Source of the DNA: a virus
Taxonomy: Duplodnaviria > Heunggongvirae > Uroviricota > Caudoviricetes
Length of the DNA: 36,050 bases
Strand: one strand, 5' to 3'
Virus record (IMG/VR): IMGVR_UViG_2558860290_000008
Coordinates: 1 to 36,050 of that record
The notes beneath the pieces are model-generated. The model was not told the DNA's origin and ran no database searches. It saw only the letters and a program-made list of their open reading frames with translations. The position numbers and the translations under genes are program-made. This document shows positions 10,056-25,045 of this stretch, one piece after another; the first letter of the stretch is position 1, and each line of letters starts with the position of its first letter.

Positions 10056-11276
10056 TTACCCTTTACGGTTTGCCCAGAATTCAGCGTTTTGTTTGTTCAG
10101 GGAAGCGATACTGGTCATGCCCATGTTTGGGCGCTGTGCATCGCCGGTGGTGGCGCGGGTGTTTCGCCCTTTGGCAATCTCAGACACGGCATTAAACGCC
10201 ATGTTGACCGATTGTTTCGGTAATTTGCGGATATCCGCATCACCGACTATCTGGCGAACCAGCGTTTTGTCAGCGGAAGCCAGAACCTCGCGTTTGAACG
10301 CGGTCGGTTTCATCTTACGGCTCAGATCGATACCCGGAACGATAACTTCGGCACGCCAGGCTGAGTCACCAGTAATCGTGGTTTCCTCTTCATCATCCTC
10401 GCCGTCACCGGTCGGATTATCGTCAGGCTTATTATCGTTATCGCCCGTGGCATTTCCTTCCAGCTTAGCCAGCAGGGCTTTCAGTAATGTTTTGAGGTCA
10501 TCATCACTGTCGACGGTTGGACCTCCACCCATCTCTGGTGCTTTGTCCGGTAGTGGTTGCTGCGGGGACAGGTTGATGTTGAGATTAACGCCCTGCGGCA
10601 AATCCCCCTCATCTCCTGTAACCGATGCGGGAGCCGACTCCACCAGTTCGTTCATGGTGTCGGCATCTCCTGTCTTGATGGCTGCACGCATGCGGTTCCA
10701 CCAGTTTTTCTTTTGATTTGCCATTGTGTCTCTGTCTCCAATTGCACAACGATTTCCGGCTCTGCCTTTGGGGACAAGAGCCACATGGTTTCCGGTAATA
10801 TCGACCTGCTCGGCTTTACCTGGCTCGGTCTGCTCGTACTCCGCGTCATAGCCGCACGACACTTCACGCAGGCCATCTTCGATAAGCTGAATGGCGTTTT
10901 CGTCTTTGACGATAAGGTCAGCCAGCATCAAATCAGACTGGTCACCAGTCCCGCGCCGCACATTCTGAAGATGCCCGACAGCAAGCTCTTTCCAGTTCTC
11001 GGGATTTACCAGCCGCACATTCCCGTTTTCATCTTCAGGATGCAGGATCGTGATGCTCATCCCTTCGAATGAGGCGAGCGTGGCCGGATTGAATACCTGC
11101 TCAGGAGAACGCGTTACGACTATCTCACCGAGCTTGTCGGGTTTGAGGTTTGGCAGATCGGCAGCGCCGTAGAGCTGCTTACCCGTTCGACCTATCGGCA
11201 CGTCTTTGCACAGCAGCGAGCCGTCAGCCAGCTGATAGCGGGTTTCCCCCAGCCGGGTATTGAAAAAATATTTCAT
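10056..11276 (-). CDS. Putative prohead protease or scaffolding protein
   Basis: 406-aa ORF between the MuF-like and capsid genes, with an acidic low-complexity central region (GDGEDDEEETT) typical of scaffolds. Confidence 0.4.
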   Translation of the reverse strand: MKYFFNTRLGETRYQLADGSLLCKDVPIGRTGKQLYGAADLPNLKPDKLGEIVVTRSPEQVFNPATLASFEGMSITILHPEDENGNVRLVNPENWKELAVGHLQNVRRGTGDQSDLMLADLIVKDENAIQLIEDGLREVSCGYDAEYEQTEPGKAEQVDITGNHVALVPKGRAGNRCAIGDRDTMANQKKNWWNRMRAAIKTGDADTMNELVESAPASVTGDEGDLPQGVNLNINLSPQQPLPDKAPEMGGGPTVDSDDDLKTLLKALLAKLEGNATGDNDNKPDDNPTGDGEDDEEETTITGDSAWRAEVIVPGIDLSRKMKPTAFKREVLASADKTLVRQIVGDADIRKLPKQSVNMAFNAVSEIAKGRNTRATTGDAQRPNMGMTSIASLNKQNAEFWANRKG

Positions 11277-11290
11277 GGTTTACCTGCGAT

Positions 11291-12064
11291 TCAGGCGAGA
11301 TAAGAATGAGGGTTGGGGAAGACGATTTCTTTGTAACAGCGGCAGTTCGGCAGCTCACCAGCGTGACCGGTCATACCGTCAAGCGTTGGAGGTCGGCCCC
11401 ATTCGACAAACTTGCCCTCCATCTCACGATGAGAGTGCCGGACATCGCCATCTTCGGCTGTACGCCAGATATAACCATTCGAACCAATTGACAGCGCACG
11501 CGCCTGATCGAGCGCGCCGGTTGCGCGTCCAAGTTCGGTACGGGCGATAAGGTTCGCTCGCGAGCGTGACACGTCACCTGACGCCGCTATCTCTTTCGCG
11601 AATGACTCAGCCCGCCCGCCAGTCACAACTGCCTCGATGGCTTTGTTCTGAATGTCATACACCCGATCGGCGGCCTCAAGAGGTAGCGATTTGATGTACT
11701 TAATCTGCTCGGCAACGATGGATTTCATCACCTGGCCTACCGGGGCGCAGTCAACCATGTTGCGCAGCTCTGCACTGATGTTCCGGCTGTGTTGACGCCA
11801 CTGCTTTTCATTCTGGCGCGCTATGTCTGCGGTAAAGTTCTCAGCTACCTTCGTCGCCCAGGGGGTGATGATTTCGCTGTAGCGCTCCAGCGCATCCATT
11901 ATTTCGGTTACGCTATCGTTTGAACCATCGTAGCGCCCATTTACGATATCCCCGACCGCCCGCGCTATCTGCCGTAGGCTCGTTCGATATCGGATCTCCG
12001 CCTGGCGACTCTGGCGGTTTGTCGCCAAGTTCGCCGATGCCTGGCGGCGCTTCGTCTTCGGCAT
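11291..12064 (-). CDS. Head morphogenesis protein, phage Mu F-like minor head protein
   Basis: C-terminal RTELGRA ... PNCRCYKE motifs typical of MuF/SPP1 gp7-like proteins; located after the portal gene. The annotated start overlaps the portal gene by about 150 nt, so the true start is uncertain. Confidence 0.6.
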   Translation of the reverse strand: MPKTKRRQASANLATNRQSRQAEIRYRTSLRQIARAVGDIVNGRYDGSNDSVTEIMDALERYSEIITPWATKVAENFTADIARQNEKQWRQHSRNISAELRNMVDCAPVGQVMKSIVAEQIKYIKSLPLEAADRVYDIQNKAIEAVVTGGRAESFAKEIAASGDVSRSRANLIARTELGRATGALDQARALSIGSNGYIWRTAEDGDVRHSHREMEGKFVEWGRPPTLDGMTGHAGELPNCRCYKEIVFPNPHSYLA

Positions 12065-13382
12065 TCTCTATGTCCTCGTCGGTAATGGATGCCCCGATGC
12101 CGGTTACGTCAGAATTTTCGCGCAAATCGGTCATAGCGGCTTTCAGTGTCATCAGACCATCACCCAGCGCCGTACTGATTGCGTTGGTAGTGTTTAACGC
12201 CACCGTTGAGCGATCGACATCAGACATTTGCCAGAGCGGGTTAAACTCAAACGTGAAATCGTCCGGCAGCGGCTTACCGAGTTCCGAGCGGTGCATAATG
12301 TCCAGTATCCGGCGCATCGGCATCCGTAAGCGGCGCTCCTGCAATGAGCTCACCCGGTCGTAATAGTTGGCAAGATCTGCATCACCGGTAGAAAATCCTT
12401 TCGGGGACTGTCCGAACAACCGCACCAGTGGAATACCAACAGCGCCACTAATCTGTTCTGCAAACTGCGATAGGATGTCATCCAGACCACTGAAGCTGTA
12501 CTGATGCGTTTCAAACTTATCCCGCGAGTCCATGAGCGTCATGCCTTCATTGCTCTGGAACTGGCGGATCAGGTCGATGTTCTTCAGCAACGCTTCGAAA
12601 GCTGGGCCACCAAGCGCGATAATCTCGCGCAGCTTCTCCACGCTGTAGGTGCGCAGATGCGCTTTGTAGACCAGCTGAGCCGCGCCGACAGTGGCGCTGT
12701 CGAACGCAGTAAGCCGATCCCAGATTCGCTCTACAACCGACATTCCCCATTCGTTCTCGGTCATCTTCTGCTGGAATGGCAGCGTGACGCCATCGAAGCG
12801 AATCAGGCGGCTGTGATGGATGCGCCAGGCCGGGATGCCCGTTGCAGTGGTCACCACGTCGTAAAACTCAGGTTTGCCGAGATCTGGCCCCATCTCTTTA
12901 ATGCGGCGGGTCAGGGCCGGGTTAATCATCCAGCGGTCGAGCGGGAGAATGCCCTTAAACTTGCCTTCTCCAATGGTTTCGAGCCGCAGCGGGGTCATTG
13001 GTGCCTGCCCCTCGATCATGATGAAGCCGACCGCGCCGCCGTAGAGGCGAGACCATTTCAGCACGTCGTTCAGCGCATCCCAGATTTGCAACTCATCCAG
13101 TTGTGATTCGAGAATGCCACGATCTTTTGCATCAATTTCCGAAGTGATGCGAATGCCTTTGCGGGTCATATCATCCGGGATAGCATCGACCGCTTCGCCG
13201 ATAATCCAGGACGATCGATAGGACCATTCCACCAGCATGCGGTTACGACTGGTGAAATTAGCCCGGTAGGTGGATGCTGAGTGCTGGTTAGGTGTCTGCA
13301 TCCCCACGCGGGCAACAAAGTTCTCATAGCCATCAGCGGTGGCCTGTGCCGTTCGCCGCGTGGCTTGTTTGTTTCGTGCCAT
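11913..13382 (-). CDS. Portal protein
   Basis: 489-aa ORF immediately downstream of the large terminase gene, with a 1-nt TGATG stop/start overlap. Confidence 0.7.
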   Translation of the reverse strand: MARNKQATRRTAQATADGYENFVARVGMQTPNQHSASTYRANFTSRNRMLVEWSYRSSWIIGEAVDAIPDDMTRKGIRITSEIDAKDRGILESQLDELQIWDALNDVLKWSRLYGGAVGFIMIEGQAPMTPLRLETIGEGKFKGILPLDRWMINPALTRRIKEMGPDLGKPEFYDVVTTATGIPAWRIHHSRLIRFDGVTLPFQQKMTENEWGMSVVERIWDRLTAFDSATVGAAQLVYKAHLRTYSVEKLREIIALGGPAFEALLKNIDLIRQFQSNEGMTLMDSRDKFETHQYSFSGLDDILSQFAEQISGAVGIPLVRLFGQSPKGFSTGDADLANYYDRVSSLQERRLRMPMRRILDIMHRSELGKPLPDDFTFEFNPLWQMSDVDRSTVALNTTNAISTALGDGLMTLKAAMTDLRENSDVTGIGASITDEDIENAEDEAPPGIGELGDKPPESPGGDPISNEPTADSAGGRGYRKWALRWFKR

Positions 13383-15004
13383 CAGGCCTGTCTCCCTAGC
13401 AGCTCCCAGATGTTCAGGGCTGAATTCATTGGCGCGTAGCTGATCATCACCGAGTCGGCAAGGTTTGGCGACCGGGTTCCATCAGGCTGTTTATCAATAA
13501 CGATTTTTCCCACACCATTAATGGAATAGGTCGGCTGCGAAAGCTCGATGATGAGTTTATCTTTGAGTGCCATGCTACTGCTGATTGAGATGATTTCGTC
13601 CGGGTTGTAAGCCATACCTTCAACCACGGCGCGCCAGGTATTCTGAAAAAGTTTACGTAACCGCCACCAGCTCTGGGCTTTGGCGTTAGCGAAGAAGTCC
13701 TTGTTCAGGCGGGCGGCCTGTCCGTTGTCACCGCGCACCGCTTCATCATCCGGATCAAATACCGCGCCACTACCTCGAAACGGTGTTGCGAGTATTGACG
13801 GTCGGCGCGCAGCGTTACGCAGTTCGTTGATAGCGCGTGCATCGCCGCGAACGCCAGCGCCCAGCCCGTCCTCATCAAAGCGAAACTCTTCGAGGTTGTC
13901 CTGTTCGCAAAAACCGAAGACCTTCTCGACGGACTGATAAATGTCGCTGCCCACACCGGACCATTCCCGCACATTTTCCAGGAGGAAGCCATGACGGGTG
14001 GAAAAGGCATTTTTGTCCCTGCCTTCATCAGCGACATCCATCGCGCCAAGTCGTTTGCCTGTTGGCTGGATACCCAGTTTGATATGCGCATCAACGGCAG
14101 CCTGTACCCATTCGGATGGAATCAGGACGCCTTCCGCTGATGCGCTGTAGTTCAGATCAAGTTCCTGTGCCACCACCACCGGATTATCGATTTTCTCGCA
14201 TTCCCTGCGATACCACTCTTCATCCTTGCGAGGATCATCCCGCCAGTGGAATGTGAATACCGGTATCTTCCCGCCGTGACGCTTCTGCGCGAACGGGTTC
14301 GCCATGCCGTTAACCGAACTCAGGTCGATACGGCAACGCGTCGTTTGTGACAACGCCGCATCAATCAGCAGAGGACGCTGAAGGAATGCAGCCTCATCAA
14401 CCAGATAAAGCGTGGTACGGTCACCACGACCAATATTATCGCCAGCCTCGCCTTTGATAACGGCACCAGTTTCAGGAAACTCAACACGCATATATGGCGC
14501 GTGCTTCTTCTCGCTCCACGAACCGCGAAACTCTACAGGTAGTGTTTCCACGAACTTGCGCGCCTTCCAGAACAATGCTTTCGGGTCACCGGTGCTGTCG
14601 ACGTATTCCTCTTTACGGGAGCCGAAACCGATAACCATTTCTTTGTTGAAGAGACAAAGCGAGCAGGCCAGTCCGATCGCGGTCCAACTGAGCCCCATTT
14701 CACGGGATTTTTCGGTAATACCATTCTCCCGATTACCCCAGCGTTCCATAATCCAGTGGATCCACTCCTCCTGCTTAGGGAAGAGTAAAAACGGAATGGT
14801 CACCGGCAGGCCATAATCAATATTACGCGGGTCCGTTGTCATGCCCCAGTCGATGATGAACTGAGCCGGGTTGGTCCGGTAAAACTGTTTTAGTGCTGGC
14901 AATATTTCAGGGTTCTGGCGAATGCGCTGTAAGCGTTCCATCCGCCATTCAAAAACCATCTGGTAATCAGGATGTTTAAAATCGAAGGGGAATGGTAACG
15001 GCAT
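13382..15004 (-). CDS. Terminase large subunit
   Basis: 540-aa ORF following the small terminase subunit, with an N-terminal ATPase-like region and a C-terminal nuclease-sized region; upstream of the portal gene. Confidence 0.8.
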
Positions 15005-15006
15005 AC

Positions 15007-15558
15007 TTAGCCCATCATTTTTCTATACGCCTCTGCAGCCTGCTCCGGCGTTAAGTTGGTAATTTCTGTTCTGACTGGTCCTCCGTCAGCACCAGTCACT
15101 TCATTTTTGACATTGTCTTTAAACGCCTGAACAGAAACATGACGCCCGAGCAACTCAAGGTTTTTAACCTTATCAGGCCATTTGATTTTCTTCAGGAGAG
15201 CAGCACTATCTGCTGATGCCATCTCGACGACATCCATTCCTGATAGCGTTGTACGCCACACCTTAGGCCAGTCTTTAATGGGCTTCAGTTCGCCATTGGC
15301 AAGCAGAATGTCAAGCACGTCCATCTGATCGATTTCAATAAGGCGATTAAGTACATATTCTGCATTAATACCAACAAGATCATTGCGTTGCGCTTTCAGT
15401 TCGGCGATTCTTAACTTGATGTCAGGTTTTGACAGGTTTTCGGATGCGGTACGGTTAGCTGTCTTTGCGCTGTACCCCGCCCGAATAGCCGCTTGCGTGG
15501 CGTTTAAATCGATGAGGTACTCGCGACAGAACATTTCTTGCTTGTCGGTGAGTGCCAT
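15007..15558 (-). CDS. Terminase small subunit
   Basis: 183-aa ORF with the N-terminus [30 protein letters not shown] (helix-turn-helix typical of small terminase subunits), directly upstream of the large subunit. Confidence 0.7.
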
Positions 15559-15582
15559 AGTTTTCTCTAGAGGATTTCTTTA

Positions 15583-15819
15583 ATGAACTCAAAGCAAATT
15601 TTTTACCGAAATACAGGTCATGATAATGAAACTTATATATTCCTGGACAAATTGGACAATGGCTCCTACCAAGTCAGGGCTGGTCATTCGTCACCTGTGA
15701 GCCATTTTGAATGGAAGGGTGATGAAACCATTCAGACAGTGGAAGAGTTTCTAGGTTCTAACCCATCATATACTGAACGTGTTCATCAACTAATTTCTGA
15801 GTTTGAAGCAGAATCGTAA
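15583..15819 (+). CDS. Hypothetical small protein (78 aa) on the opposite strand
   Basis: Plus-strand ORF with a GAGGA ribosome-binding site, AT-rich relative to its flanks. Its start codon is 24 bp from the small terminase start, oriented divergently. Confidence 0.5.
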   Translation: MNSKQIFYRNTGHDNETYIFLDKLDNGSYQVRAGHSSPVSHFEWKGDETIQTVEEFLGSNPSYTERVHQLISEFEAES

Positions 15820-16113
15820 TCACCACCCAAGCGACTCAACTGATATCTAGTTCATCATTACTAGGACTAAAAGTAGATTCCTGACATTGAGAACCTCTTT
15901 ATCCGCTTGTGGGGATATCAGTTAAGTTATCCCGTGTAGGGTATAAGCCATTGTCGAGACCACTCATTGAATGGCCTCTGCAATAACCGATGTCTTTCCA
16001 TCAGTCCGCCACCACAAAGAATCTTTTTTGCCATAAGGCAGGAGGTTCATCTTTCAGTGGCTGCCAGTGTTATTTCCCCACTTACTGGCTTGGGTTGTTT
16101 CGCTGTACTGCCG

Positions 16114-16656
16114 TTAATTGGTGAGTCCGGGTATTACGGTTTGCCCGTGCTGTTCAAGGCGTTCAATTCTAGCCAGCAGCTGTGGCTTCTTAATTTTTCC
16201 CCAGCGATTAAGCAAGCGGCCTGACATGCTGGCAACATCCTTCTCTTTCATGTACTCCAGCATTACGGCATTTCTCTCTTCTTCAAATTGACGATGACCA
16301 ACCTGAAGCATGGCGTACATCCAGTTGAATGCGTTGATGTAAGCAATTTTGATACGCATTGCTTCTTTTTTGGTGTAGGACATAACCAAAAGCATCAACC
16401 CATCCTTACGTAGCCGATAGAATTTTTGTGGCTTACCATTCTGTAACTCATTGTTTTTATAGCAAACCTCAAAATTGAGTTTTGTATCAAACTCTTCAGG
16501 ACAAGCAGCGATAGTTCTTTCTACATCACGCACAACGTTGTCATGTCGCTTACGAAATGCTTTCGCCACCATAAATGAATCGGTGACAGGGTCATTGTTG
16601 GTAATAAAAACCAGTTCTTTGAAATCAATGCCGTCAACGATAGTTGGATAATTCAT
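16114..16656 (-). CDS. rha: Rha-family phage regulatory protein
   Basis: N-terminal motifs (VTDSFMVAKAFRKRHDNVVRD ... KIAYINAFN) resemble the Rha family; located between the lysis and terminase genes as in P22-like phages. Confidence 0.6.
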   Translation of the reverse strand: MNYPTIVDGIDFKELVFITNNDPVTDSFMVAKAFRKRHDNVVRDVERTIAACPEEFDTKLNFEVCYKNNELQNGKPQKFYRLRKDGLMLLVMSYTKKEAMRIKIAYINAFNWMYAMLQVGHRQFEEERNAVMLEYMKEKDVASMSGRLLNRWGKIKKPQLLARIERLEQHGQTVIPGLTN

Positions 16657-16804
16657 CGGTAATTACCTTTTAGTGATGAACCTTGTCACACAGGATTCCG
16701 GCCCACAGAAAGGCACCGATAACCAAACCGGCATCCTCAAGGGTCATCCTGAAAGGCTCTGTGTTCATAAGTCGCGCGTGTGAAGCGCATTTACTGAGGA
16801 CATA

Positions 16805-16828
16805 AAAAAGCCCCGCTTCTGCGAGGCA
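16805..16828 (-). terminator. Intrinsic terminator downstream of the lysis cassette
   Basis: Minus-strand GCCTCGC-AGAA-GCGGGGC hairpin followed by TTTTTT. Confidence 0.7.
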
Positions 16829-16869
16829 TTTTCCTGAAAGTCACTTGTTAAATTTCAGTGAAGTTAAAA

Positions 16870-17364
16870 TTATTTTAAGCACTGAGTCCTGATGTACTCC
16901 TGCAGGTAGTTAACCTGCGCGGTTATCCTGTCGATTCCACTTCGGAGACGGTAATAATTGAGTTCAGCATCTGCTGTAAGTCCTGGGCTTTCTCCATCGC
17001 CCATGCTGCTGGCTCCGGTCGTTGACTTTGCACAGGTGGCGGCGACTTGCAGGCGCTTACGACCAGCAGAAACATCAGCACGGAGACTTTCGATAGTCGC
17101 GTTAGCATCAGCAAGCTCCTTTGTATATCTGGCATCGAGTTCTGCTACGTCACGTTGACGCCTCTGCATATCAGAGATCGTCGCCATAGCCGAATCTAAT
17201 GCCATAGCGTTTTCGTCGCGCTGTTTTTTGTATTCAATGGCTTTATTGTGGTAATGATTAGCTGACCAGACGAGAGAACCGAATAAAGTCAGGAGGAAAG
17301 CAGAAATAACCAGCTTATAGCGAAGTTTCATTAACCACCCCGCCAGCTTCTTTGAATTTGGCAA
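16870..17364 (-). CDS. Rz: Rz-like i-spanin
   Basis: N-terminal transmembrane segment followed by a coiled-coil-like periplasmic domain, directly after the endolysin gene. True start may be the ATG at 17331. Confidence 0.7.
   Translation of the reverse strand: MPNSKKLAGWLMKLRYKLVISAFLLTLFGSLVWSANHYHNKAIEYKKQRDENAMALDSAMATISDMQRRQRDVAELDARYTKELADANATIESLRADVSAGRKRLQVAATCAKSTTGASSMGDGESPGLTADAELNYYRLRSGIDRITAQVNYLQEYIRTQCLK
16923..17108 (-). CDS. Rz1: Rz1-like o-spanin, embedded in the +1 frame of Rz
   Basis: MLTRLSKVSVLMFLLVVSAC lipoprotein signal with lipobox, followed by a proline-rich segment (KSPPPVQSQRPEP); entirely inside the Rz gene. Confidence 0.6.
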   Translation of the reverse strand: MLTRLSKVSVLMFLLVVSACKSPPPVQSQRPEPAAWAMEKAQDLQQMLNSIITVSEVESTG

Positions 17365-17791
17365 TCAGACTATCGATCTTGTGTTCATACTGACCGTAGC
17401 CAGCACCGGGCAATGAAGCCCAAATATTGCTGCAACGATCGATAGCCTGACGGATATCACCGCGATCAATCATCGGTAAAGCGCCACGTTCTTTAATCTG
17501 TTGCAGTGCCACAGCGTCCTGGCTTTTCGGAGAGAAGTCTTTCAGGCCAAGCTGCTTACGATAGGCATCCCACCAACGGGAAAGAAGCTGGTAGCGTCCG
17601 GCGGCTGTTGATTTGAGTTTGGGGTTTAGCGTGACAAGTTTGCGAGGGTGATCTGAGTAATCAGTGAATAGCTCTCCGCCTACAATGACGTCATAACCAT
17701 GATTTCTGGTTTTCTGACGTCCGTTATCAGTCCCCTCTGACCACGCCAGCATATCGAGGAACGCCTTACGTTGATTATTGATTTCCACCAT
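17315..17791 (-). CDS. R: Endolysin, lambda R-type lytic transglycosylase
   Basis: 158-aa protein beginning [39 protein letters not shown], which matches my recollection of lambda R almost exactly; C-terminus diverges. Confidence 0.9.
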
Positions 17792-18098
17792 CTTCTACTC
17801 CGGCTTTTTTAGCAGCGAAGCGTTTGATAAGCGAACCAATCGAGTCAGTACCGATGTAGCCGATGAACACGCTCGTTATATAAGCGAGATTGCTACTTAG
17901 TCCGGCGAAGTCGAGAAGGTCACGAATGAACCAGGCGATAATGGCGCACATCGTTGCGTCGATTACTGTTTTTGTAAACGCACCGCCATTATATCTGCCG
18001 CGAAGGTACGCCATTGCAAACGCAAGGATTGCCCCGATGCCTTGTTCCTTTGCCGCGAGAATGGCGGCTAACAGGTCATGTTTTTCTGGCATCTTCAT
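17775..18098 (-). CDS. S: Holin/antiholin, lambda S-type with dual start
   Basis: 107-aa protein beginning [39 protein letters not shown], with the Met1-Lys2-Met3 dual-start motif; matches my recollection of lambda S. Confidence 0.9.
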
Positions 18099-18339
18099 GT
18101 CTTACCCCCAATAAGGGGATTTGCTCTATTTAATTAGGAATATGGTCGGTTACTGATAGAACAAATCCAGGCTACTGTGTTTAGTAATCAGATTTGTTCG
18201 TGACCGATATGCACGGGCAAAACGGCAGGAGGTTGTTAGCGCGACCTCCTGCCACCCGCTTTCACGAGGTCATGTGTAGAAGGCCGCAGCGTAACTATCA
18301 CTGATGAATTCAGGATAGCCAGTGGCTACGGCTCAGTTA

Positions 18340-18415
18340 TGGTGCTGGTTAACGGACTTGAACCGCTACCCATTCGCTTACAAGGCGACCGCTCTACCAT
18401 TGGAGCTAAACCAGC
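18340..18415 (-). tRNA. tRNA-Thr (anticodon UGU), 76 nt
   Basis: Hand-folded cloverleaf: 7-bp acceptor stem (GCUGGUU/AACCAGC), D arm GCUC/GAGC with a GG loop, anticodon loop CUUGUAA, T arm with TTCAAGT loop, discriminator A and encoded CCA. Confidence 0.7.
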
Positions 18416-18420
18416 ATATT

Positions 18421-18495
18421 TGGCGGGACAGCGTGGACTCGAACCACGATAAGAAGGTTAACAGCCTTCCGTAATGACCTTTATACGACTGACCC
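18421..18495 (-). tRNA. tRNA-Asn-like (anticodon GUU), 75 nt, with one acceptor-stem mismatch
   Basis: Hand-folded: anticodon stem GAAGG/CCUUC, loop CUGUUAA, T arm CGUGG-TTCGAGT-CCACG, encoded CCA. Acceptor stem has a U-U mismatch at 4:68 and the D stem is only 3 bp. Confidence 0.5.
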
Positions 18496-18496
18496 A

Positions 18497-18540
18497 AATA
18501 AAAAAGCCACCGTTGCAACTTAAGAGTCACTAACGGCAGC
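18497..18540 (-). terminator. Intrinsic terminator immediately downstream of the putative late promoter (tR'-like)
   Basis: Minus-strand GCUGCCGUU ... AACGGUGGC 9-bp stem followed by UUUUUUAUU, ending 1 nt before the first tRNA. Confidence 0.65.
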
Positions 18541-18550
18541 TTACCTTCTA

Positions 18551-18580
18551 ATTATGGCTAAATGGATAATTGCATGTCAA
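18551..18580 (-). promoter_or_regulatory. Putative late promoter (pR'-like) and likely site of Q action
   Basis: Minus-strand TTGACA, 18-nt spacer, CATAAT; overlaps the Q stop codon, with the terminator hairpin starting within a few nucleotides of the predicted start site. Confidence 0.55.
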
Positions 18581-19076
18581 GGCTTTTAACAGCAACATGC
18601 TTAACTTTCTCAACACGTTTACGCATTTTGAAAGCATTTTGCATTGGCTGATATAAAACAAATAATGACGCTTTCAGGATGTCGTCAATTTCGTTTCTAC
18701 AGGTTGCCAGTGAAGGTTTTCTCCATCCCTCGCCACCACGTCCACACATCTTGCGTGGCTTTGCAGTCGCGTGATAGTAGGATGCAATTGCTCGCTTAGA
18801 TGAACCATGAGCGTAGTAGCTGAGGAGGATGCCAAAGGCTTTCTTGTCAATGTACATGACGGAATCGACGACCTGAGAAATCAACATTCCATCATCATCA
18901 TTGCACATTGGCCTTGTCATAACTCTTCCCGGCTCTACGCTCTCCATGAACTTCGCTATTACGCTGCTCATGCGCTTTTCCAGGCGGCCTGAGTAAACCC
19001 ATGCACCCCACAGTTCAAGCCAGCCATTCAGCCAATCGTGCTGTTCTTTGGTGAGGTTTAGTTCTCTTATGCTCAT
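18558..19076 (-). CDS. Q: Late-gene antiterminator Q (phage 21 / 933W-type family)
   Basis: 172-aa protein with WLELWGAWVYSG ... RPMCNDDDGMLISQVVDSVMYIDKKAFGILLSYYAHG, resembling the WGAW ... CCDDD pattern I recall for 21/933W-type Q. Located between the nin genes and the late promoter. Confidence 0.7.
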   Translation of the reverse strand: MSIRELNLTKEQHDWLNGWLELWGAWVYSGRLEKRMSSVIAKFMESVEPGRVMTRPMCNDDDGMLISQVVDSVMYIDKKAFGILLSYYAHGSSKRAIASYYHATAKPRKMCGRGGEGWRKPSLATCRNEIDDILKASLFVLYQPMQNAFKMRKRVEKVKHVAVKSLDMQLSI

Positions 19077-19261
19077 GGTCTACCCCTCTTGCCCTGTTTG
19101 ACCATCAGGACGCCGTTAACTATTACGTGACGCTCACCTTTGCTGTCTCGGTTGTACTTGAGCACTGTTCCTCTTGCACAGGAAAGCATCCTCGCCACTT
19201 CGGTCTGATTACCTCGTGTCTGGATAAGAAGCTCTGGTATCGTTTGAATTGTGGCGTTCAT
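19073..19261 (-). CDS. ninH: NinH-like protein
   Basis: 62-aa protein MNATIQTIPELLIQTRGNQTEVARMLSCARGTVLKY, resembling lambda NinH; ATGA overlap with rusA. Confidence 0.7.
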   Translation of the reverse strand: MNATIQTIPELLIQTRGNQTEVARMLSCARGTVLKYNRDSKGERHVIVNGVLMVKQGKRGRP

Positions 19262-19620
19262 GCGTTCTCCAGTTCGGTGATTTTTATTCCAAGCCTTCCG
19301 CCTGGTACTTTCACGCCACGAATTACGCGAATGTCATCGAATTGCTCGTCGTCTTCCGCAAATCCGGCGTGGATAAGGGAGTCGAGTAAACCTTTCAGGA
19401 TGTTGTCGAGGTCGCGGCGGCGGGAGTCTGGAACGTCTGCGATGACTTTGATACGGAGTCGTTATTTGGTGAAAATGTCTAACTTAAGTTGGCGGATGAT
19501 TTGCTGAACGTCTTTTCGGTATTTCTGGCCTTTATCGCTGATGTAGTATTGGCTTCCCCGTCTTCGCCAGTAGGTATTCACCGACGGCGGGTATGGAAGC
19601 ACAAACTGATATTCGTTCAT
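19258..19620 (-). pseudogene. rusA: rusA Holliday-junction resolvase homolog interrupted by an in-frame TAA at 19464..19462
   Basis: Minus-strand translation MNEYQFVLPYPPSVNTYWRRRGSQYYISDKGQKYRKDVQQIIRQLKLDIFTK-stop-RLRIKVIADVPDSRRRDLDNILKGLLDSLIHAGFAEDDEQFDDIRVIRGVKVPGGRLGIKITELENA. Both halves are in one frame and align with RusA, including the RRRDLDN active-site motif. Confidence 0.75.
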
Positions 19621-19907
19621 GACTTAATCTTCCCCTCCTTCAGCAGTATCGCCTGCGTCCTGATCACGCCTTCGAGGTGGTAAAGTCTGGCGTCTTTGTT
19701 GTCGAGATTATGGGTGCGTCGGTCGATTTCATCGTGACACGCGCTACAAGCCCATGCGCCGATCAGGTCGTCAGGCTTCATTCCAGTTCCGCAAATTCCA
19801 GCCATCCGGTAATGTGCCAGAACTGTAGTTTCAGGATTGCCATTGCATACGCCGTAAATACGTACCTGGCATTCTCTGCCGCGCGCTTCTTTGCGTAGGT
19901 TAGCCAT
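19617..19907 (-). CDS. YbcO-like protein (DUF1364-type, putative nuclease)
   Basis: 96-aa protein with RECQVRIYGVCNGNPETTVLAH ... CSACHDEIDRR, resembling the DLP12 prophage ybcO product as I recall it; ATGA overlap with rusA. Confidence 0.5.
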   Translation of the reverse strand: MANLRKEARGRECQVRIYGVCNGNPETTVLAHYRMAGICGTGMKPDDLIGAWACSACHDEIDRRTHNLDNKDARLYHLEGVIRTQAILLKEGKIKS

Positions 19908-20176
19908 TATGGTTCACTCCAGTAATTCTCAATTGCAACAGCCATTCTCTGCATCCACTCAGCCAGCTTTAACGCGGCTTCTCTTTCAGAACCACATTTA
20001 GGGAAATCCTTCATTTCCATGCTGGCCTTATATGTTCTGAATGCCAGGTCTCCGGTAATAACCAACTCCTGATCAAGCACCGAGCGTTTATTCCGGTGCT
20101 GAACGTAATAGACAGATTCAGTCCGCATTTCTTCTCTGTCTTTTTTGAAGGAAATAAGCTCAGAGAAATCACTCAT
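19907..20176 (-). CDS. Hypothetical protein (89 aa)
   Basis: ORF translationally coupled on both sides (ATGA overlaps with ninF and the YbcO-like gene); no family recognised. Confidence 0.5.
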   Translation of the reverse strand: MSDFSELISFKKDREEMRTESVYYVQHRNKRSVLDQELVITGDLAFRTYKASMEMKDFPKCGSEREAALKLAEWMQRMAVAIENYWSEP

Positions 20177-20339
20177 CGTCTTCTTCCTCGTACATTGAGC
20201 TATTCGGATCGCTCATCAGTTCTGCGCAGCAGTGCTCACACACGTGAACTTCCAGCACATGCAGCTTCTGACCGCAGTTAGCGCACGTTAAAGCTCGCTC
20301 GACACTTCCTTGTTCGTAACTTCGATTTGGGTCAATCAC
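20169..20339 (-). CDS. ninF: NinF-like protein (GTG start)
   Basis: Hand translation [56 protein letters not shown] (56 aa), resembling lambda NinF; below the ORF-track size cutoff. Confidence 0.65.
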
Positions 20340-20518
20340 CTTGTTTTCCTCGCACGTTCTCTAAGCCACCGGATATCCCACAGGTGAGCCGTGTAATTGA
20401 AGGTTTTTACGTCAGATTCTTTTGGGATTGGTTTGCGTTTATTTCTGGAGCGTTTCGTTGGAAGGTATTTGCAGTTTTCGCAGATGATGTCGGTGATACT
20501 TCGTCGCTGTCGTCTCAT
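20336..20518 (-). CDS. ninE: NinE-like protein
   Basis: [60 protein letters not shown] (60 aa), resembling lambda NinE; start at the internal Met of ORF 20336..20608. Confidence 0.75.
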
Positions 20519-21042
20519 GCTGCCCTCCTGACGCCCTGCCCGATCGCCATCAATGCCGCTTTGGATACGGTAGTAAACATCCGTCGAGGACTGATGAACG
20601 GTCGCCAAATCAGCAGCATGGAGCCTTTGCTGTTTCCCTTCTTCTCCAGCCCTGTCGATGGTTCGATAAAATTAATCCGTCCATCAGTGATAATGCGAAC
20701 TTCGTCGACACTCTCCAGAGCCTTGCTGAACCATCCGACTGACATATCCTCTGGCACAAGCATAACTACCGTCTGTCGCTGTTGTATGCACTGCTCAGCG
20801 GCTTTTTCCACCCACGGCCTGATATTGCTGTACGGTGGGTTATTCCAGATTGCACCGTGGCTTATCCACTCAGAATTTAGCGCGTCGTCGGCCTCAGTTA
20901 ACCAGTGAGCGCACAGAGCATTTTTGTCGCTCGCTGCCGAATCCAGCCAGAATCCAAACTCAATATCCAGTGCATCAAAAAGCCAAAGCGGCGTTTGCCA
21001 GCAGTCCTTGTCGTGTGCTGGCGTATTTGATTTGATAGTCAT
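20515..21042 (-). CDS. DNA N6-adenine methyltransferase (phage Dam-like)
   Basis: NNPPYS catalytic motif; start taken at [26 protein letters not shown] (ATG 21042) with an ATGA overlap to ninB. Confidence 0.7.
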
Positions 21043-21479
21043 GCAGCCCGATCTCCCCATCGCGCTTTCCATTCGAGAGCTAGTCGCGCTTCGTCTGACC
21101 ACTTAACGCCACGCTCTGTACCGAATGCCTGTATAAGCTCTAATAGCTCCGCAAATTCGCTTACACGCATCCTGCTGGTTGACTGGCCTATTACCACAAA
21201 GCCATTCCCGGCAAGGTTAGGAACAACGTCCTGCTGCTTTAATGCTGCTGTAAAAACGCACTTCCAGCTTTCTGCATCCAGCCAGCGACCATGCCATTCA
21301 ACCTGACGAGAGACGTCACCAAGGCAAGCCCAAAGCTTCCGATTTTGGTCTAAGCTGCGGTTGCGTTCCTGAATGGTTACTACGATTGGTTTGGTTGGGT
21401 CTGGAATGATTTGCTGTACTGCGTGAATAGCGTTCTGCTGATGGATGTGGCTTCTTAGTTCAAACGTTAGTTTCCTCAT
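21039..21479 (-). CDS. ninB: NinB recombination protein
   Basis: 146-aa protein MRKLTFELRSHIHQQNAIHAVQQIIPDPTKPIVVTIQERNRSLDQNRKLWACLGDV, near-identical to lambda NinB as I recall it. Confidence 0.9.
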   Translation of the reverse strand: MRKLTFELRSHIHQQNAIHAVQQIIPDPTKPIVVTIQERNRSLDQNRKLWACLGDVSRQVEWHGRWLDAESWKCVFTAALKQQDVVPNLAGNGFVVIGQSTSRMRVSEFAELLELIQAFGTERGVKWSDEARLALEWKARWGDRAA

Positions 21480-21696
21480 GGGATGAACTCCAGTTTGCGA
21501 TGTTAAATTCCCATTTAATTACCTTTGCATACCCAATTTTGAACCCATCAATACCTATCCACCGATTGCCACTCCAATAAGCTGTACCACTTTGCTTGAA
21601 ATGATGTGGATGCCTAGATTGAGTGGTCACAGTTACAGGTAAATATGGCTTCGGGTATTCCCCATTCCCTGGATAACCAGATTTAATTTTGCTCAT
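21460..21696 (-). CDS. Hypothetical protein (78 aa, Trp-rich)
   Basis: ORF between the replication and nin genes; no family recognised. Confidence 0.45.
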   Translation of the reverse strand: MSKIKSGYPGNGEYPKPYLPVTVTTQSRHPHHFKQSGTAYWSGNRWIGIDGFKIGYAKVIKWEFNIANWSSSHEETNV

Positions 21697-22019
21697 TGAT
21701 ACCCTCTCTCACTTAATCGCGCCCACGCTTCGTTAAACTCTTCTCGGGTTGCGCCGGATTTTCTTTCTTCAAACATCATGCATTCGCTGATGTCTCCCCA
21801 TGACTTTGGTCGCTTTTCAGCGAACAGATCATCCCATTCGAATACCCAGCGTCCTGATTTTCGGTAGTGGTAAATGGTCAGCCATGTTGTGCTGTTCGCT
21901 GGATACCCATAGAGAACTTCGACTTTTTGATCACGGTCTTTATGCTTTTTCAGCAGGATAAAGCCAGCAACCAGCGAAGCTCCGGCAAGAATGATGATTG
22001 GTATTTGCCAGTCAGCCAC
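21693..22019 (-). CDS. Hypothetical membrane-anchored protein (108 aa)
   Basis: N-terminal transmembrane helix (IPIIILAGASLVAGFILL) then a soluble domain; 4-nt overlap with the downstream gene. Confidence 0.5.
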   Translation of the reverse strand: MADWQIPIIILAGASLVAGFILLKKHKDRDQKVEVLYGYPANSTTWLTIYHYRKSGRWVFEWDDLFAEKRPKSWGDISECMMFEERKSGATREEFNEAWARLSERGYQ

Positions 22020-22031
22020 GCTTACCTCCGC

Positions 22032-22238
22032 TTAACTCACAAAACGCCACGCCATTTTTGCTACGACAACAGGCATAACACCGATAATCCCCCACAGGAA
22101 AATGCTACCTAAAAGCATATTCCCCAGGTCTTTACCTTCGCCTACCAACCGGACAAAACAGCCAGCAACCACAATGAACGTCGCCACCATCCACAGAGCA
22201 CCGAGAAGCCTCAATGCAGAGAAAATCAACTCAACCAC
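22032..22238 (-). CDS. Hypothetical small membrane protein (68 aa, GTG start)
   Basis: Two predicted transmembrane helices; GGAGAG ribosome-binding site; first gene after the tR2-like terminator. Confidence 0.45.
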   Translation of the reverse strand: MVELIFSALRLLGALWMVATFIVVAGCFVRLVGEGKDLGNMLLGSIFLWGIIGVMPVVVAKMAWRFVS

Positions 22239-22253
22239 GATTTACTCTCCCCC

Positions 22254-22284
22254 AAATAAAAAGGCCTGCGATTACCAGCAGGCC
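22254..22284 (-). terminator. Intrinsic terminator after the helicase gene (tR2-like position)
   Basis: Minus-strand GGCCTGC-UGGUAAUC-GCAGGCC hairpin followed by UUUUUAUUU. Confidence 0.65.
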
Positions 22285-22310
22285 TGTTATTAGCTCAGTG
22301 ACGTAGATGG

Positions 22311-23687
22311 TCATACGTCAGCCCCTTGTGCATATCGTCTGCCACGCGCAGCAGGTGCATTTGATGCTGTGCAAATCTGTCTGGCTTCATCCTGGTCACA
22401 TGCAACAAAGTGTCCGTTACAGAACCGCTGGTAAACCGTACCAAGCGAGCCAAAACGGTTTTTCGTCACAATGATTTCAGCAAATGGCGCGGCGCTACTG
22501 TTCTCGTCATATACAGCTTCCCGATAGAGCATGATGATTGAGTCTGCGTCCTGTTCAATGCTTCCTGAATCACGCAAATCTGCGTTTGTCGGGCGTTTGT
22601 TTGGTCGCTTCTCAACATCGCGTGAAAGCTGACTCAGGGAGATAACAGGCGTTTTCAGGTCTTTCGCCATCGCCTTCAGGCTTCCGGAGATGTGAGCAAT
22701 TGCGAGATCGTTGCGATCTGCTTTCGGCTTCTCAATCAGGCCAAGATAATCCGCCATGATGAGTGACAGGTTTGGATTTTCCTGTTTGTGCCGTTCTGCG
22801 ATTGAGCGTATTTCTTCGACCGATAACCGCGAGGCATCGACTACCCATACATCCAAATCCGCAAGCTGACTCATGCCGTTAGCAACACGCGCCCAGCCTT
22901 CGTCATCCATCGATGCAGGATTTCGCAGTACGCTAACCGACATCCTCCCGGCGTTGGCAATGCTTCGCTCTGCAATCTGCAATGCGCTCATTTCCATTGA
23001 GAAAATCAATACCCCGCGCCGGACGTCAGAACCAGGAATAACACGGCTTGCAACGCCTTCGGCAATCTTCAGCGCCAGTTCGGTTTTCCCCATACCAGGA
23101 CGAGCAGCGATTATCACCAGGTCTTCCGCGTTCATCCCTCCGGTGATGGCATCAAGTTCTTCGATTCCGGTCTTCAGGGTATCGGACTCTTCTCCGTTCC
23201 TCAGACGCCTGTCAAGCGTGTCAGTGTAGTCAGTAATGATTTCCCCTAACCGTACAGGTTTAACCTCGTCACGGGGCTTTCTGATGGCTGAAAGACGCTT
23301 TACAAGCTCATCCATCGCCTGACTCGATGCGTCGATGGTTCCGCTCTGAATTGGTTCACGCATTTCATCCATGATTTCCAGCACCAGACGGCGGTGATAG
23401 TTATCCGCGACCATTCCTGCATATCCCTTCAGGTTTGCGGCACTCGGGCAGTTTTTGCTGGTCATCAGGATTGACGTGAAATGCTCCTCTCCGCACGCCT
23501 CGGCAACCATCAGCGCGTCGATTAGGTTTCTGTTTCGCGCCTGCTTGCGGATAACCTCGAAGGCTTTCCGGTAGAGCGGAATTGAAAACGCTTCCGGCTC
23601 CAGCGTTGCCAGAACGTCGCTGGCGGTTGGTGTTAATCCACCAATCAGCAGGCCACCGATAACGCTCGCTTCGATATCCTGTTTCAT
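22311..23687 (-). CDS. Replicative DNA helicase (DnaB-like, P22 gene 12-type)
   Basis: 458-aa protein with a Walker A motif ([15 protein letters not shown]) and DnaB-like C-terminal domain features; follows the O-like initiator. Confidence 0.85.
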
Positions 23688-24505
23688 GCAATCCCCCTGT
23701 CTGCAAACTTCCCTTCCCGAACTCCCGTTAACGAATCTTCCCTCAGCAGGTAATCAAAATCGGCCGTCCAGCCAGTGTCGTTGTCTCCGAAGTAAAACGG
23801 CTTGGCCTGATGTACAAACGCCCTGACATACGCTCTGAAACCGTCCACGTTTGGCGTTTTCAGTTGCGGGATGATTTTCTTCAGGCGGCGTTTGCGTTTC
23901 TCGTTGACCGCAACAGCGTGTGGCAGTCTGTCACCGACTTCGGTGTTGTAGGCGTTCAGGAAGGATTCGTAGTCGATTCGTTCTGCCTTGCGACGTTCAG
24001 GTTTAACCTGCCCATCGCCGCCCCCGTTAGGGGGTAAGGGGGTATTTGTATTTATTGTCTTTTGTATATTGTCTTTTGTGTTTAGCTGACTTGGCTTATA
24101 CCCATTAGCCGACTTGGCTAATGTTTTATTAGCTGTTTTAGCTAATGTTAAGCTATCCTGGCTAATCCACTGCGAAACCACCTTGTTCACTCCGATTTTC
24201 ACGCCATCAGCAATGAGGAATTTACGCTCAATAAGCTGGCGCTTGGCAGCGCAAACATGAGTGTGATGAATACCTGTCATGGCTGCTATCTGCGTGTTTG
24301 TGAGTCGATCCATCGGCTTATTGAATCCGTATGTCTTGCGCATGATAGCGAGCATCACCTTCAACTGCCGGACGGTTAAATCAGCCATCAGCAGACTGTC
24401 GGTAATCTCGTTAGCAACGCGCATGAAACCATCTTCGGTATCTGCCACGCGATGCTCCACGACCTCCAGTTGAGGCCTGTAATCAGCTAACTTAACGACG
24501 CCCAT
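23684..24505 (-). CDS. Replication initiation protein (lambda O / P22 gene 18-like)
   Basis: 273-aa protein with an N-terminal helix-turn-helix region; the gene contains origin iterons and an AT-rich stretch, as lambda O does. Confidence 0.75.
24040..24166. repeat. Replication origin: four iterons of about 19 bp plus an adjacent AT-rich region with direct repeats
   Basis: TTAGCTGACTTGGCTTATA (24082), TTAGCCGACTTGGCTAATG (24106), TTAGCTGTTTTAGCTAATG (24129), TTAAGCTATCCTGGCTAAT (24148); upstream ATTGTCTTTTGT x2 and a CCCCCGTTAGGGGGTAAGGGGG tract. Confidence 0.7.
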
Positions 24506-24651
24506 GTTTCACTCCTGCTTTGGCTAGTCTGTAAACACCAACAAGGCGCTCTGCGAACGCCCTGTTATTTGCTGCGGCTACCACTAATCCCTCAGGTGAA
24601 TCAGGGTGTCGAATCTCTTCTTTTTCCTGGTATTTCTTACGACGTTTTGTC
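24493..24651 (-). CDS. Possible small ORF between cII and the replication gene (52 aa)
   Basis: Hand translation [53 protein letters not shown]; overlaps the O-like start by 13 nt; below the ORF-track cutoff. Confidence 0.3.
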
Positions 24652-24687
24652 ATAATTACTCCTGTGGATTGATCCAGTCTTTCTACA

Positions 24688-24966
24688 TCAGGCCTCGAAG
24701 AATTCGCCGTTCTTCGGGGCTTTTTCTTTTGTCAGCATTCTTGCTACTTGCTTAGCCAGTTCCGCCAACTCCTCGTCTTCAACACCCCATTCCAGCACAG
24801 CCAGAAGCATGGCCATCTTTGGGATAAAGCTGTCTTTCCATCGCGAAATTTGCGATTCATTAATCCCTAACGCGTCGGCAACCTTTCGCTGACCACGTAC
24901 AGCAATTCGATTCAGGATGTTGCTTGTAATTGCATTCGCTTTCTTGCGAGTACTTGTAAGTTGCAT
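24688..24966 (-). CDS. cII: cII-like transcriptional activator
   Basis: MQLTSTRKK ... ESQISRWKDSFIPKMAMLLAVLEWGVEDEE, homologous to lambda CII but not identical; upstream RBS and start context (AAGGAAATACTTACATATG) match lambda. The ORF-track N-terminal extension was rejected. Confidence 0.8.
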   Translation of the reverse strand: MQLTSTRKKANAITSNILNRIAVRGQRKVADALGINESQISRWKDSFIPKMAMLLAVLEWGVEDEELAELAKQVARMLTKEKAPKNGEFFEA

Positions 24967-25045
24967 ATGTAAGTATTTCCTTAGATAACAATTGATTGAA
25001 TGTATGCAAATAAATGCATACACCATAGGTGTGGTTTAATTTGAT

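Follow-up and report, generated by a model that had tools for sequence, protein, structure and literature searches.

What are the three small genes that lie behind a tR2-like terminator, between the replication genes and ninB, in a 36,050-nucleotide stretch of caudoviral DNA (here the window, by which we mean the whole stretch that was analysed), and do they act together? A sequence-only reading had placed them at the position of lambda ren, recognised none of them and suggested that two small membrane proteins and a Trp-rich soluble protein form a cassette with a role in exclusion, abortive infection or toxicity. We find instead that this part of the window, from tR2 to ninB, is probably the variable slot of an HK97-like early-right operon in a lambda-like prophage, occupied by separate and exchangeable accessory genes and not by one system. 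The slot holds four tightly packed open reading frames: a NinA-like gene and three genes that are called here g68, g108 and g78 after the lengths of their products.

Gene content of the slot between tR2 and ninB

The features of the region are as follows, in the order in which they are read.

24505..23684, minus strand: O-like replication gene
22311..23687, minus strand: DnaB-type replicative helicase gene (HK97 P-like), from the ORF list, with HK97 P as its aligned counterpart
22231..22314, minus strand: NinA-like hydrophobic ORF of 27 aa, from its translation, with Sf6 gene 45 as counterpart
22252..22285, minus strand: tR2-like intrinsic terminator, from a terminator scan and the annotation of the homologous site in Sf6
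22032..22238, minus strand: g68, a two-helix membrane protein of 68 aa (PHROG 1165)
21693..22019, minus strand: g108, a protein of 108 aa with an N-terminal membrane anchor (PHROG 5903)
21460..21696, minus strand: g78, a basic, Trp-rich soluble protein of 78 aa (PHROG 29435)
21039..21479, minus strand: ninB, an orf-family recombination mediator (Pfam NinB, E = 3.6e-54; PHROG 72)

Collinearity of the window with HK97 extends from O/P to Q and on through the lysis genes. The helicase gene, whose homologous loci gave Pfam matches of the DnaB/DnaC_C type, is the final gene of the replication module, while the conserved ninB anchors the slot on its right and is followed by a Pfam-supported Dam-type methylase gene. 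The order helicase, tR2-like terminator, g68, g108, g78, ninB, Dam thus puts the three genes where nin-region accessory genes are found, that is, downstream of tR2 in the early-right operon, after the replication genes and before the Q antiterminator. In HK97, which has the closest early-right operon, the same slot holds only gp56 (NinA-like) and gp60. The packing is of the ATGA type: the helicase and NinA genes overlap as ATGA, NinA and g68 as GTGGTTGA, g108 and g78 again as ATGA, and g78 and ninB by 20 nt, with a spacer of 12 nt between g68 and g108 and a Shine-Dalgarno sequence ahead of each of g68, g108 and g78. Much of the sequence-only reading is borne out at this level, since the ORF list confirms its coordinates for all three genes on the minus strand, together with their sizes, tight packing and site after tR2 and before ninB. 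Its topology classes also hold, as Kyte-Doolittle profiles give two hydrophobic stretches in g68, one in g108 and none in g78.

A NinA-like gene runs through the terminator

That reading had overlooked the fourth ORF (22314..22231), which bridges the helicase gene and g68. Its ATG overlaps the TGA stop of the helicase gene, it reads through the tR2 hairpin, and its own TGA overlaps the GTG start of g68. The hairpin consists of AGGCCTGC, a loop and GCAGGCCT, followed by the T-run TTTTTATTT; the terminator scan puts hairpin and T-run at 22285..22262 of the minus strand. In Sf6 the homologous site is annotated as 'terminator, homology to phage lambda tR2', and gene 45, annotated as 'similar to phage 21 NinA', overlaps both tR2 and the bsq6 mosaic boundary sequence.

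The unit that leads from NinA through tR2 into g68 is rigidly conserved, which is mildly interesting in itself. A comparison of 79 g68 loci from IMG/VR showed the overlap of NinA stop and g68 start in 76, the ATGA start of NinA in 71 and a conserved tR2-like hairpin in 72. The unit could be a translation-coupled device, in which ribosomes that cross the hairpin via NinA would modulate termination at tR2 and feed g68. We regard it as unlikely that either this holds or that the soluble domain of g108 is a widespread host-takeover or counter-defence module, a second reading which is taken up with g108 below and for which we make one joint estimate with the first.

The three proteins belong to catalogued phage families

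All three sequences are already known and catalogued as hypothetical proteins. The exact proteins occur on 216 (g68), 197 (g108) and 335 (g78) public contigs, where they are named hypothetical throughout, and the sequence-only reading, which recognised none of them, missed matches to HK022 gp58 (about 90% identity), Sf6 gene 46 (99%) and PHROG 29435. It was right that no function could be assigned. Searches of the three proteins against Pfam, NCBIfam and PADLOC, a PDB sequence search and a fold search gave nothing significant, and the PHROGs that were matched are all of unknown function. When every member of both protein alignments was compared with Pfam at E ≤ 10, scattered weak matches appeared, some of them to single-span membrane-anchor families. 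The remote-homology and structure predictions that had been proposed as a check have yielded full-length PHROG matches and confident AlphaFold2 models of g108 and g78, but no profile or fold that gives a function. In the literature, our searches turned up no work on the function of HK022 gp58, Sf6 gp46 or the g78 family.

g68 matches PHROG 1165 over its full length (residues 1-68 to positions 1-68, E = 2e-33). It starts with GTG behind the Shine-Dalgarno sequence GGGGGAGAG and has hydrophobic stretches at about residues 4-30 and 41-62 (Kyte-Doolittle), so that hydropathy and the positive-inside rule predict an inner-membrane hairpin of N-in/C-in orientation. HK022 gp58 resembles it in its 68 aa, its sequence, its GTG that overlaps the NinA stop and its place directly behind tR2; the following gene differs, being gp59 (PF26207 family) in HK022 and g108 in the window, and otherwise nothing material separates the two. 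A gene of PHROG 1165 is the first after tR2 in many lambda-like phages, for instance HK022, HK75, HK630, mEp235, mEpX1 and Stx phages. In all 80 IMG/VR loci surveyed, g68 follows NinA/tR2 directly and is intact with a GTG start (50 distinct DNA sequences), while the median dN/dS of 0.54 shows that the constraint is weak. The gene is present in 530 of 5426 complete E. coli genomes (~10%). Its identity as a class II (two-helix) holin or pinholin was considered and rejected: g68 has no Pfam match at E ≤ 1 and hence no match to a holin family profile, and it does not lie in the lysis cassette, where collinearity with HK97 puts the holin, endolysin and spanin genes near 17.3-18.1 kb.

g108 matches PHROG 5903 with residues 1-108 of 108 (E = 8.9e-76). 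It also starts with GTG, behind the Shine-Dalgarno sequence GGAGG, and has a single hydrophobic helix at about residues 5-25 (Kyte-Doolittle), followed by KKHKDRDQK. The AlphaFold2 model (mean pLDDT 84) shows a helix at 5-27, four strands and a C-terminal helix. The protein is predicted, from hydropathy and the positive-inside rule, to lie N-out/C-in, with a domain of ~80 aa in the cytoplasm. This is a conserved alpha/beta domain with the motif YGYP..TWLTIYH.R..W.FEWDDLF..GRP, and in an alignment with relatives down to 34% identity 17 residues are invariant (YGYP..WLT.YH.R..FE.DDLF..R). The gene is intact in 79 of 80 loci and starts with GTG in all 80, its median dN/dS is 0.18, and it is found in 108 of 5426 complete E. 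coli genomes (2%). Sf6 gene 46 is its closest named counterpart (99% protein and 97% DNA identity, 108 aa, in the nin-region slot after NinA/tR2). In Sf6 it follows NinA directly, without g68, and precedes gene 47, whereas in the window g108 has g68 before it and g78 after it.

The soluble domain of g108 (residues ~31-105) extends well beyond lambda-like phages. A tblastn search finds it in many T1-like phages (such as IME207, seszw and C1), in Goslar and in the T5-like phage KookSpook, and a viral structure library yields matches of g108 in the jumbo phage Goslar (E = 6e-8) and in phage IME207, to proteins that are likewise uncharacterised. Temperate lambda-like phages share the domain with virulent phages of enterobacteria, among them T1-like, T5-like and jumbo phages, and some relatives are without the membrane anchor. 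The g108 profile had no match among sequences of solved structures. The domain could be conceived as a host-takeover or counter-defence module that is tethered to the inner membrane in some lineages only, at the low joint estimate given above.

g78 matches PHROG 29435 with residues 1-78 of 78 (E = 1.3e-57). Its ATG overlaps the g108 stop, and the protein contains four Trp (5%), is free of hydrophobic segments and has a pI of 9.5; in the AlphaFold2 model (mean pLDDT 85) a small all-beta domain carries a disordered tail, and g78 is thus predicted to be a small basic cytosolic beta protein. The family core of ~60 aa reads GYPGNGEYP..AYWSGxRW..KVIKW, and relatives down to ~40% identity in unrelated phage backgrounds keep an invariant YP..P..A.WSG..W. 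The gene is intact in 22 of 23 loci, has its ATG start in 23 of 23, a median dN/dS of 0.33, and is carried by 25 of the 5426 complete E. coli genomes (0.5%). The family is tiny, since an exhaustive profile search of 1.84 billion representative proteins yielded 12 true relatives; two long proteins matched by the profile (P0194 and P0195) were discarded as repeat artefacts, and among sequences of solved structures the profile gave one chance match (E = 0.93). A likeness of g78 to a DUF551-like small barrel was considered and dropped for want of Pfam support. The tail ..HEETNV stems from the 20 nt that g78 shares with ninB, and HK022 gp60 and Sf6 gp49 end in the same C-terminus, so this tail from a common ninB overlap marks a recombination joint. 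The protein S13c_00065 of Klebsiella phage VLCpiS13c shares the core motif of ~60 aa (56% identity) and is likewise small, basic and all-beta, but it is without the 15-aa ninB-overlap tail and sits outside any nin region, with a methyltransferase in a small cassette flanked by tail genes. Further g78 relatives are found in other contigs that are not lambda-like.

Taken singly, g68, g108 and g78 are real genes under purifying selection, as indicated by their intact ORFs, conserved starts and dN/dS values of 0.18-0.54, and by the confident AlphaFold2 folds of g108 and g78.

Linkage and mosaicism

If the three genes formed one system, they should be inherited together. We therefore compiled neighbour statistics for 80 g108 loci, 80 g68 loci and 34 g78 loci from IMG/VR, together with 20 places on contigs. 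Of the 80 g108 loci, 23 have g78 as the next gene, 45 an Sf6-gp47-like gene and 10 ninB; g68 precedes g108 in six of them, and none has the full trio. Seen from the 80 g68 loci, the next gene is of the HK022-gp59/Sf6-gp48 type, ninB or g108, the last in only 2/80. Seven of ten places on contigs with the exact g68 have the order g68-g108-gp47-like-PF26207-ninB, behind four different upstream replication modules. On contigs with the exact g78 the order is always NinA-g108-g78-ninB and g68 is never present; indeed, no surveyed locus besides the window has g78 together with g68. The whole trio is absent from all 5426 complete E. coli genomes, and junction-pattern scans for it in species-representative genomes and IMG/VR gave no second copy, although these scans need exact anchors and near-identical variants could escape them.

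The pattern is that of mosaic, independently exchangeable modules, and the conserved co-occurrence that marks a multi-gene system such as a toxin-antitoxin or abortive-infection operon was not seen. The cassette of the sequence-only reading consequently falls apart into its members. Closely related copies of g78 do adjoin g108 in 33 of 33 loci, and this constant adjacency could reflect a functional pair instead of recent common descent. Distant g78 relatives sit among varied early genes without g108. A conserved g108-g78 pair in T1-like phages was considered and rejected, since the gene before the g78 relative of VLCpiS13c is unrelated to g108 and the gene after the g108 relative of IME207 is unrelated to g78.

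The window itself seems to record one such exchange. Over the 3' two-thirds its g108 allele belongs to the g78-linked type, and at position 18 it has the base typical of g68-linked alleles, which one g78-linked allele (L140) shares. Judged by this single site, the window combination looks like a recombinant of a 'g68-g108' and a 'g108-g78' lineage with the crossover inside g108. Since each protein belongs to a known phage family that shuffles independently, the slot is an ordinary piece of mosaic DNA and not a defence or toxin cassette. Lambda-like nin regions are typically mosaic, non-essential and ATGA-packed (PMC8022706; PMC2629481).

Comparison with ren and the nin genes of lambda and P22

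Lambda Ren and the nin genes of lambda and P22 resemble the trio in their delayed-early pR operon, their neighbourhood, their non-essential status and their ATGA packing (PMC8022706). Ren differs in its position, being part of the replication module right after the P-type gene and upstream of tR2, whereas g68, g108 and g78 all lie downstream of tR2. No sequence relationship of the three proteins to Ren was seen. Moreover, Ren-type genes coexist with g68: in mEpX1 the gene for a Ren-like exclusion protein adjoins the g68 homologue, and in two further loci (L131 and L132) a gene of 96 aa precedes tR2, which is then followed by g68. The three genes are thus not in the position of ren, as had been supposed.

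Expression and the case for a defence function

A consensus scan found no sigma-70-like promoter on either strand of 20900-22500, though a weak or non-canonical lysogen promoter could escape such a scan. The three genes lie, furthermore, directly behind an intrinsic terminator in the pR operon. From these two facts we infer that the products appear only after induction or infection, via N antitermination through tR2. Lytic growth or induction would be the only state in which the genes are transcribed, as part of the delayed-early pR transcript that N antiterminates. The overlaps between stop and start codons suggest coupled translation from the helicase gene onward, in a chain that would lead from the helicase stop/NinA start over the NinA stop/g68 start, the Shine-Dalgarno-led g108 and the ATGA of g108/g78 to the overlap of g78 and ninB. 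Of the products, g68 would sit in the inner membrane as a hairpin, g108 would display its conserved acidic, aromatic alpha/beta domain at the cytoplasmic face of the membrane, and g78 would be cytosolic.

This layout bears on the proposal that the genes are a prophage-encoded defence, that is, a superinfection exclusion system, an abortive infection system or a membrane toxin which blocks phage DNA or depolarises the membrane in lysogens. The slot is hypervariable, as defence hotspots are, and T4 Imm, P22 SieA and HK97 gp15 are small inner-membrane proteins that act in superinfection exclusion. The resemblance of g68 and g108 to these phage proteins is one of size and topology only, without similarity in sequence or profile, and SieA and gp15 have an independent expression signal, whereas none was found for g68 and g108. 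Prophage-expressed exclusion genes and morons are in general marked by a promoter of their own, yet the consensus scan gave none here, and the genes stand behind an intrinsic terminator inside an operon that is repressed in the prophage. No PADLOC family matches g68, g108 or g78 even at E ≤ 1, so none of them could be assigned to a known defence system. The three genes are also unlinked, and g108 is frequently shortened in prophages. Finally, g108 and g78 have relatives in virulent phages, which have no lysogens needing protection, and this argues for a role in lytic growth and not in the protection of lysogens. The three genes hence do not appear to be prophage-expressed defences, and we consider this explanation very unlikely.

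Replication factors or spurious reading frames

Another explanation is that the proteins are accessory replication or recombination factors which tether or modulate the phage machinery at the membrane. In lambda-like phages the genes are always found between the replication module and ninB, the g108-like gene of the T1-like phage IME207 and a g78-like gene (L112) each stand one ORF upstream of a large helicase gene, and the g78 relative of VLCpiS13c shares its small cassette with a DNA methyltransferase. Against this, g68 and g108 are paired with at least four different replication modules (a 458-aa DnaB, a 478-aa DnaB, lambda P and an IstB/DnaC-like protein), which indicates that they are not matched to one replisome, and in our judgement a replication role has little probability.

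That one or more of the ORFs are not functional genes, with g78 and g68 as the candidates (g68 being open by chance or because of neighbouring signals), is extremely improbable: PGAP leaves g78 uncalled in three RefSeq E. coli genomes where it is present at 100% identity, the annotated g68 of HK630 and HK75 is a shorter version of 52 aa and the dN/dS of g68 is the highest of the three, but g68 is open from its GTG in every one of 80 loci with 50 distinct DNA sequences, all three genes have Shine-Dalgarno sequences, and g78 keeps its invariant motif down to ~40% identity in unrelated phage backgrounds and is modelled with a mean pLDDT of 85.

What the genes may do

As delayed-early accessory proteins, the products of the three genes are best read as probably non-essential. 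Sf6 gene 46 lies inside a region where laboratory deletions proved viable, shortened g108 alleles of 80 aa persist in E. coli prophages, several of them beside the exact g78, and the literature on nin regions agrees with this reading. Because the analysis revealed a biochemical function for none of the three, we infer only a functional class. With low confidence, we think that they are most likely dispensable proteins that modulate the host or the competition between phages in lytic development, each by binding a host or phage partner of its own.

For the biology of lambda-like phages, the analysis removes a false lead, as the three genes do not make up a defence or toxin cassette, and it corrects the comparison with ren. 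It has little weight as a discovery, since catalogued ORFans are seen here in the normal mosaic pattern of lambda-like nin regions, but it puts on record three common uncharacterised families as real, expressed-looking genes. The most sensible of the three to characterise is the g108 domain, which virulent phages share and which is without a match among solved structures.

The NinA-like ORF and the terminator

A small hydrophobic ORF resembling NinA lies between the DnaB-type helicase gene and the 68-aa gene (g68), and reads through the tR2 hairpin:

22231-22314, minus strand: NinA-like hydrophobic ORF, 27 aa, across tR2

An ATGA overlap couples its start with the stop of the helicase gene, and coupling to the start of g68 is through GTGGTTGA. 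This arrangement of helicase stop, NinA-like ORF, tR2 and g68 start is kept in 71-76 of the 79 related loci, and translation of the ORF through the hairpin could influence termination at tR2. In loci lacking g68, gene callers join the NinA ORF in frame to the 108-aa gene (g108), and the database entries of 133-134 aa (P0002, P0007 and similar proteins) are such fusions. The 133-aa NinA-g108 product, which extends across the terminator, is possibly an artefact of annotation.

Gene calls for g108, g78 and Dam

The 78-aa gene (g78) is left uncalled by NCBI PGAP in RefSeq E. coli genomes that have it at 100% DNA identity, and g108 is shortened to 80 aa or altered (105 aa) in several E. coli contigs with the exact g78 protein (coordinates within each locus):

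L004, 1980-2194; L006 and L007, 2520-2734: uncalled g78 ORF in RefSeq E. coli genomes
L133 and L137, 2679-2921; L134, 2604-2921: truncated or altered g108 calls in contigs with the exact g78 protein

The uncalled g78 ORF is conserved at the protein level and has a confident AlphaFold2 fold, and its missing calls look like a systematic annotation gap. The short or altered calls suggest that g108 is decaying in some prophages. A further start position concerns the methylase gene:

20515-21102, minus strand: Dam methylase, longest ORF 195 aa with a GTG start, overlapping ninB by 64 nt

The product in related loci has 175 aa and begins at the ninB stop; hence the real start is probably this downstream one, not the GTG.

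Mosaic boundaries and possible alternative occupants

Unrelated genes preceding ninB (g78 in the window, HK022 gp60 and Sf6 gp49) share the C-terminus ..(S)HEETNV, because the final codons of each fall in one and the same 20-nt stretch, where the gene overlaps the start of ninB (21460-21479 in the window). This overlap is a visible mosaic boundary sequence. Two selfish elements are also present in related loci: g78 and ninB are split apart in L135 by an inserted HNH endonuclease gene (3218-3805), and the 797-aa DnaB helicase of L142 (212-2605) possibly carries an intein, its LAGLIDADG match being only faint.

Judged by its matches, the prophage itself has a hybrid make-up: the early-right and lysis regions (15900-25000) are ~96% identical to HK97, HK022 and CUS-3-type phages, while its virion genes (1-17800) match the myovirus-type phages vB_EcoM-606R2 and Salmonella SEN34, in which a tail sheath is present. 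Among T1-like phages, a g108-like gene in IME207 (L223, 2462-4646) and a g78-like gene in L112 (3986-6062) are each separated by a single small ORF from a large helicase gene downstream; in IME207 the annotation of that gene is 'DNA helicase'. The g108-like and g78-like genes may be alternatives to each other in a shared accessory slot.
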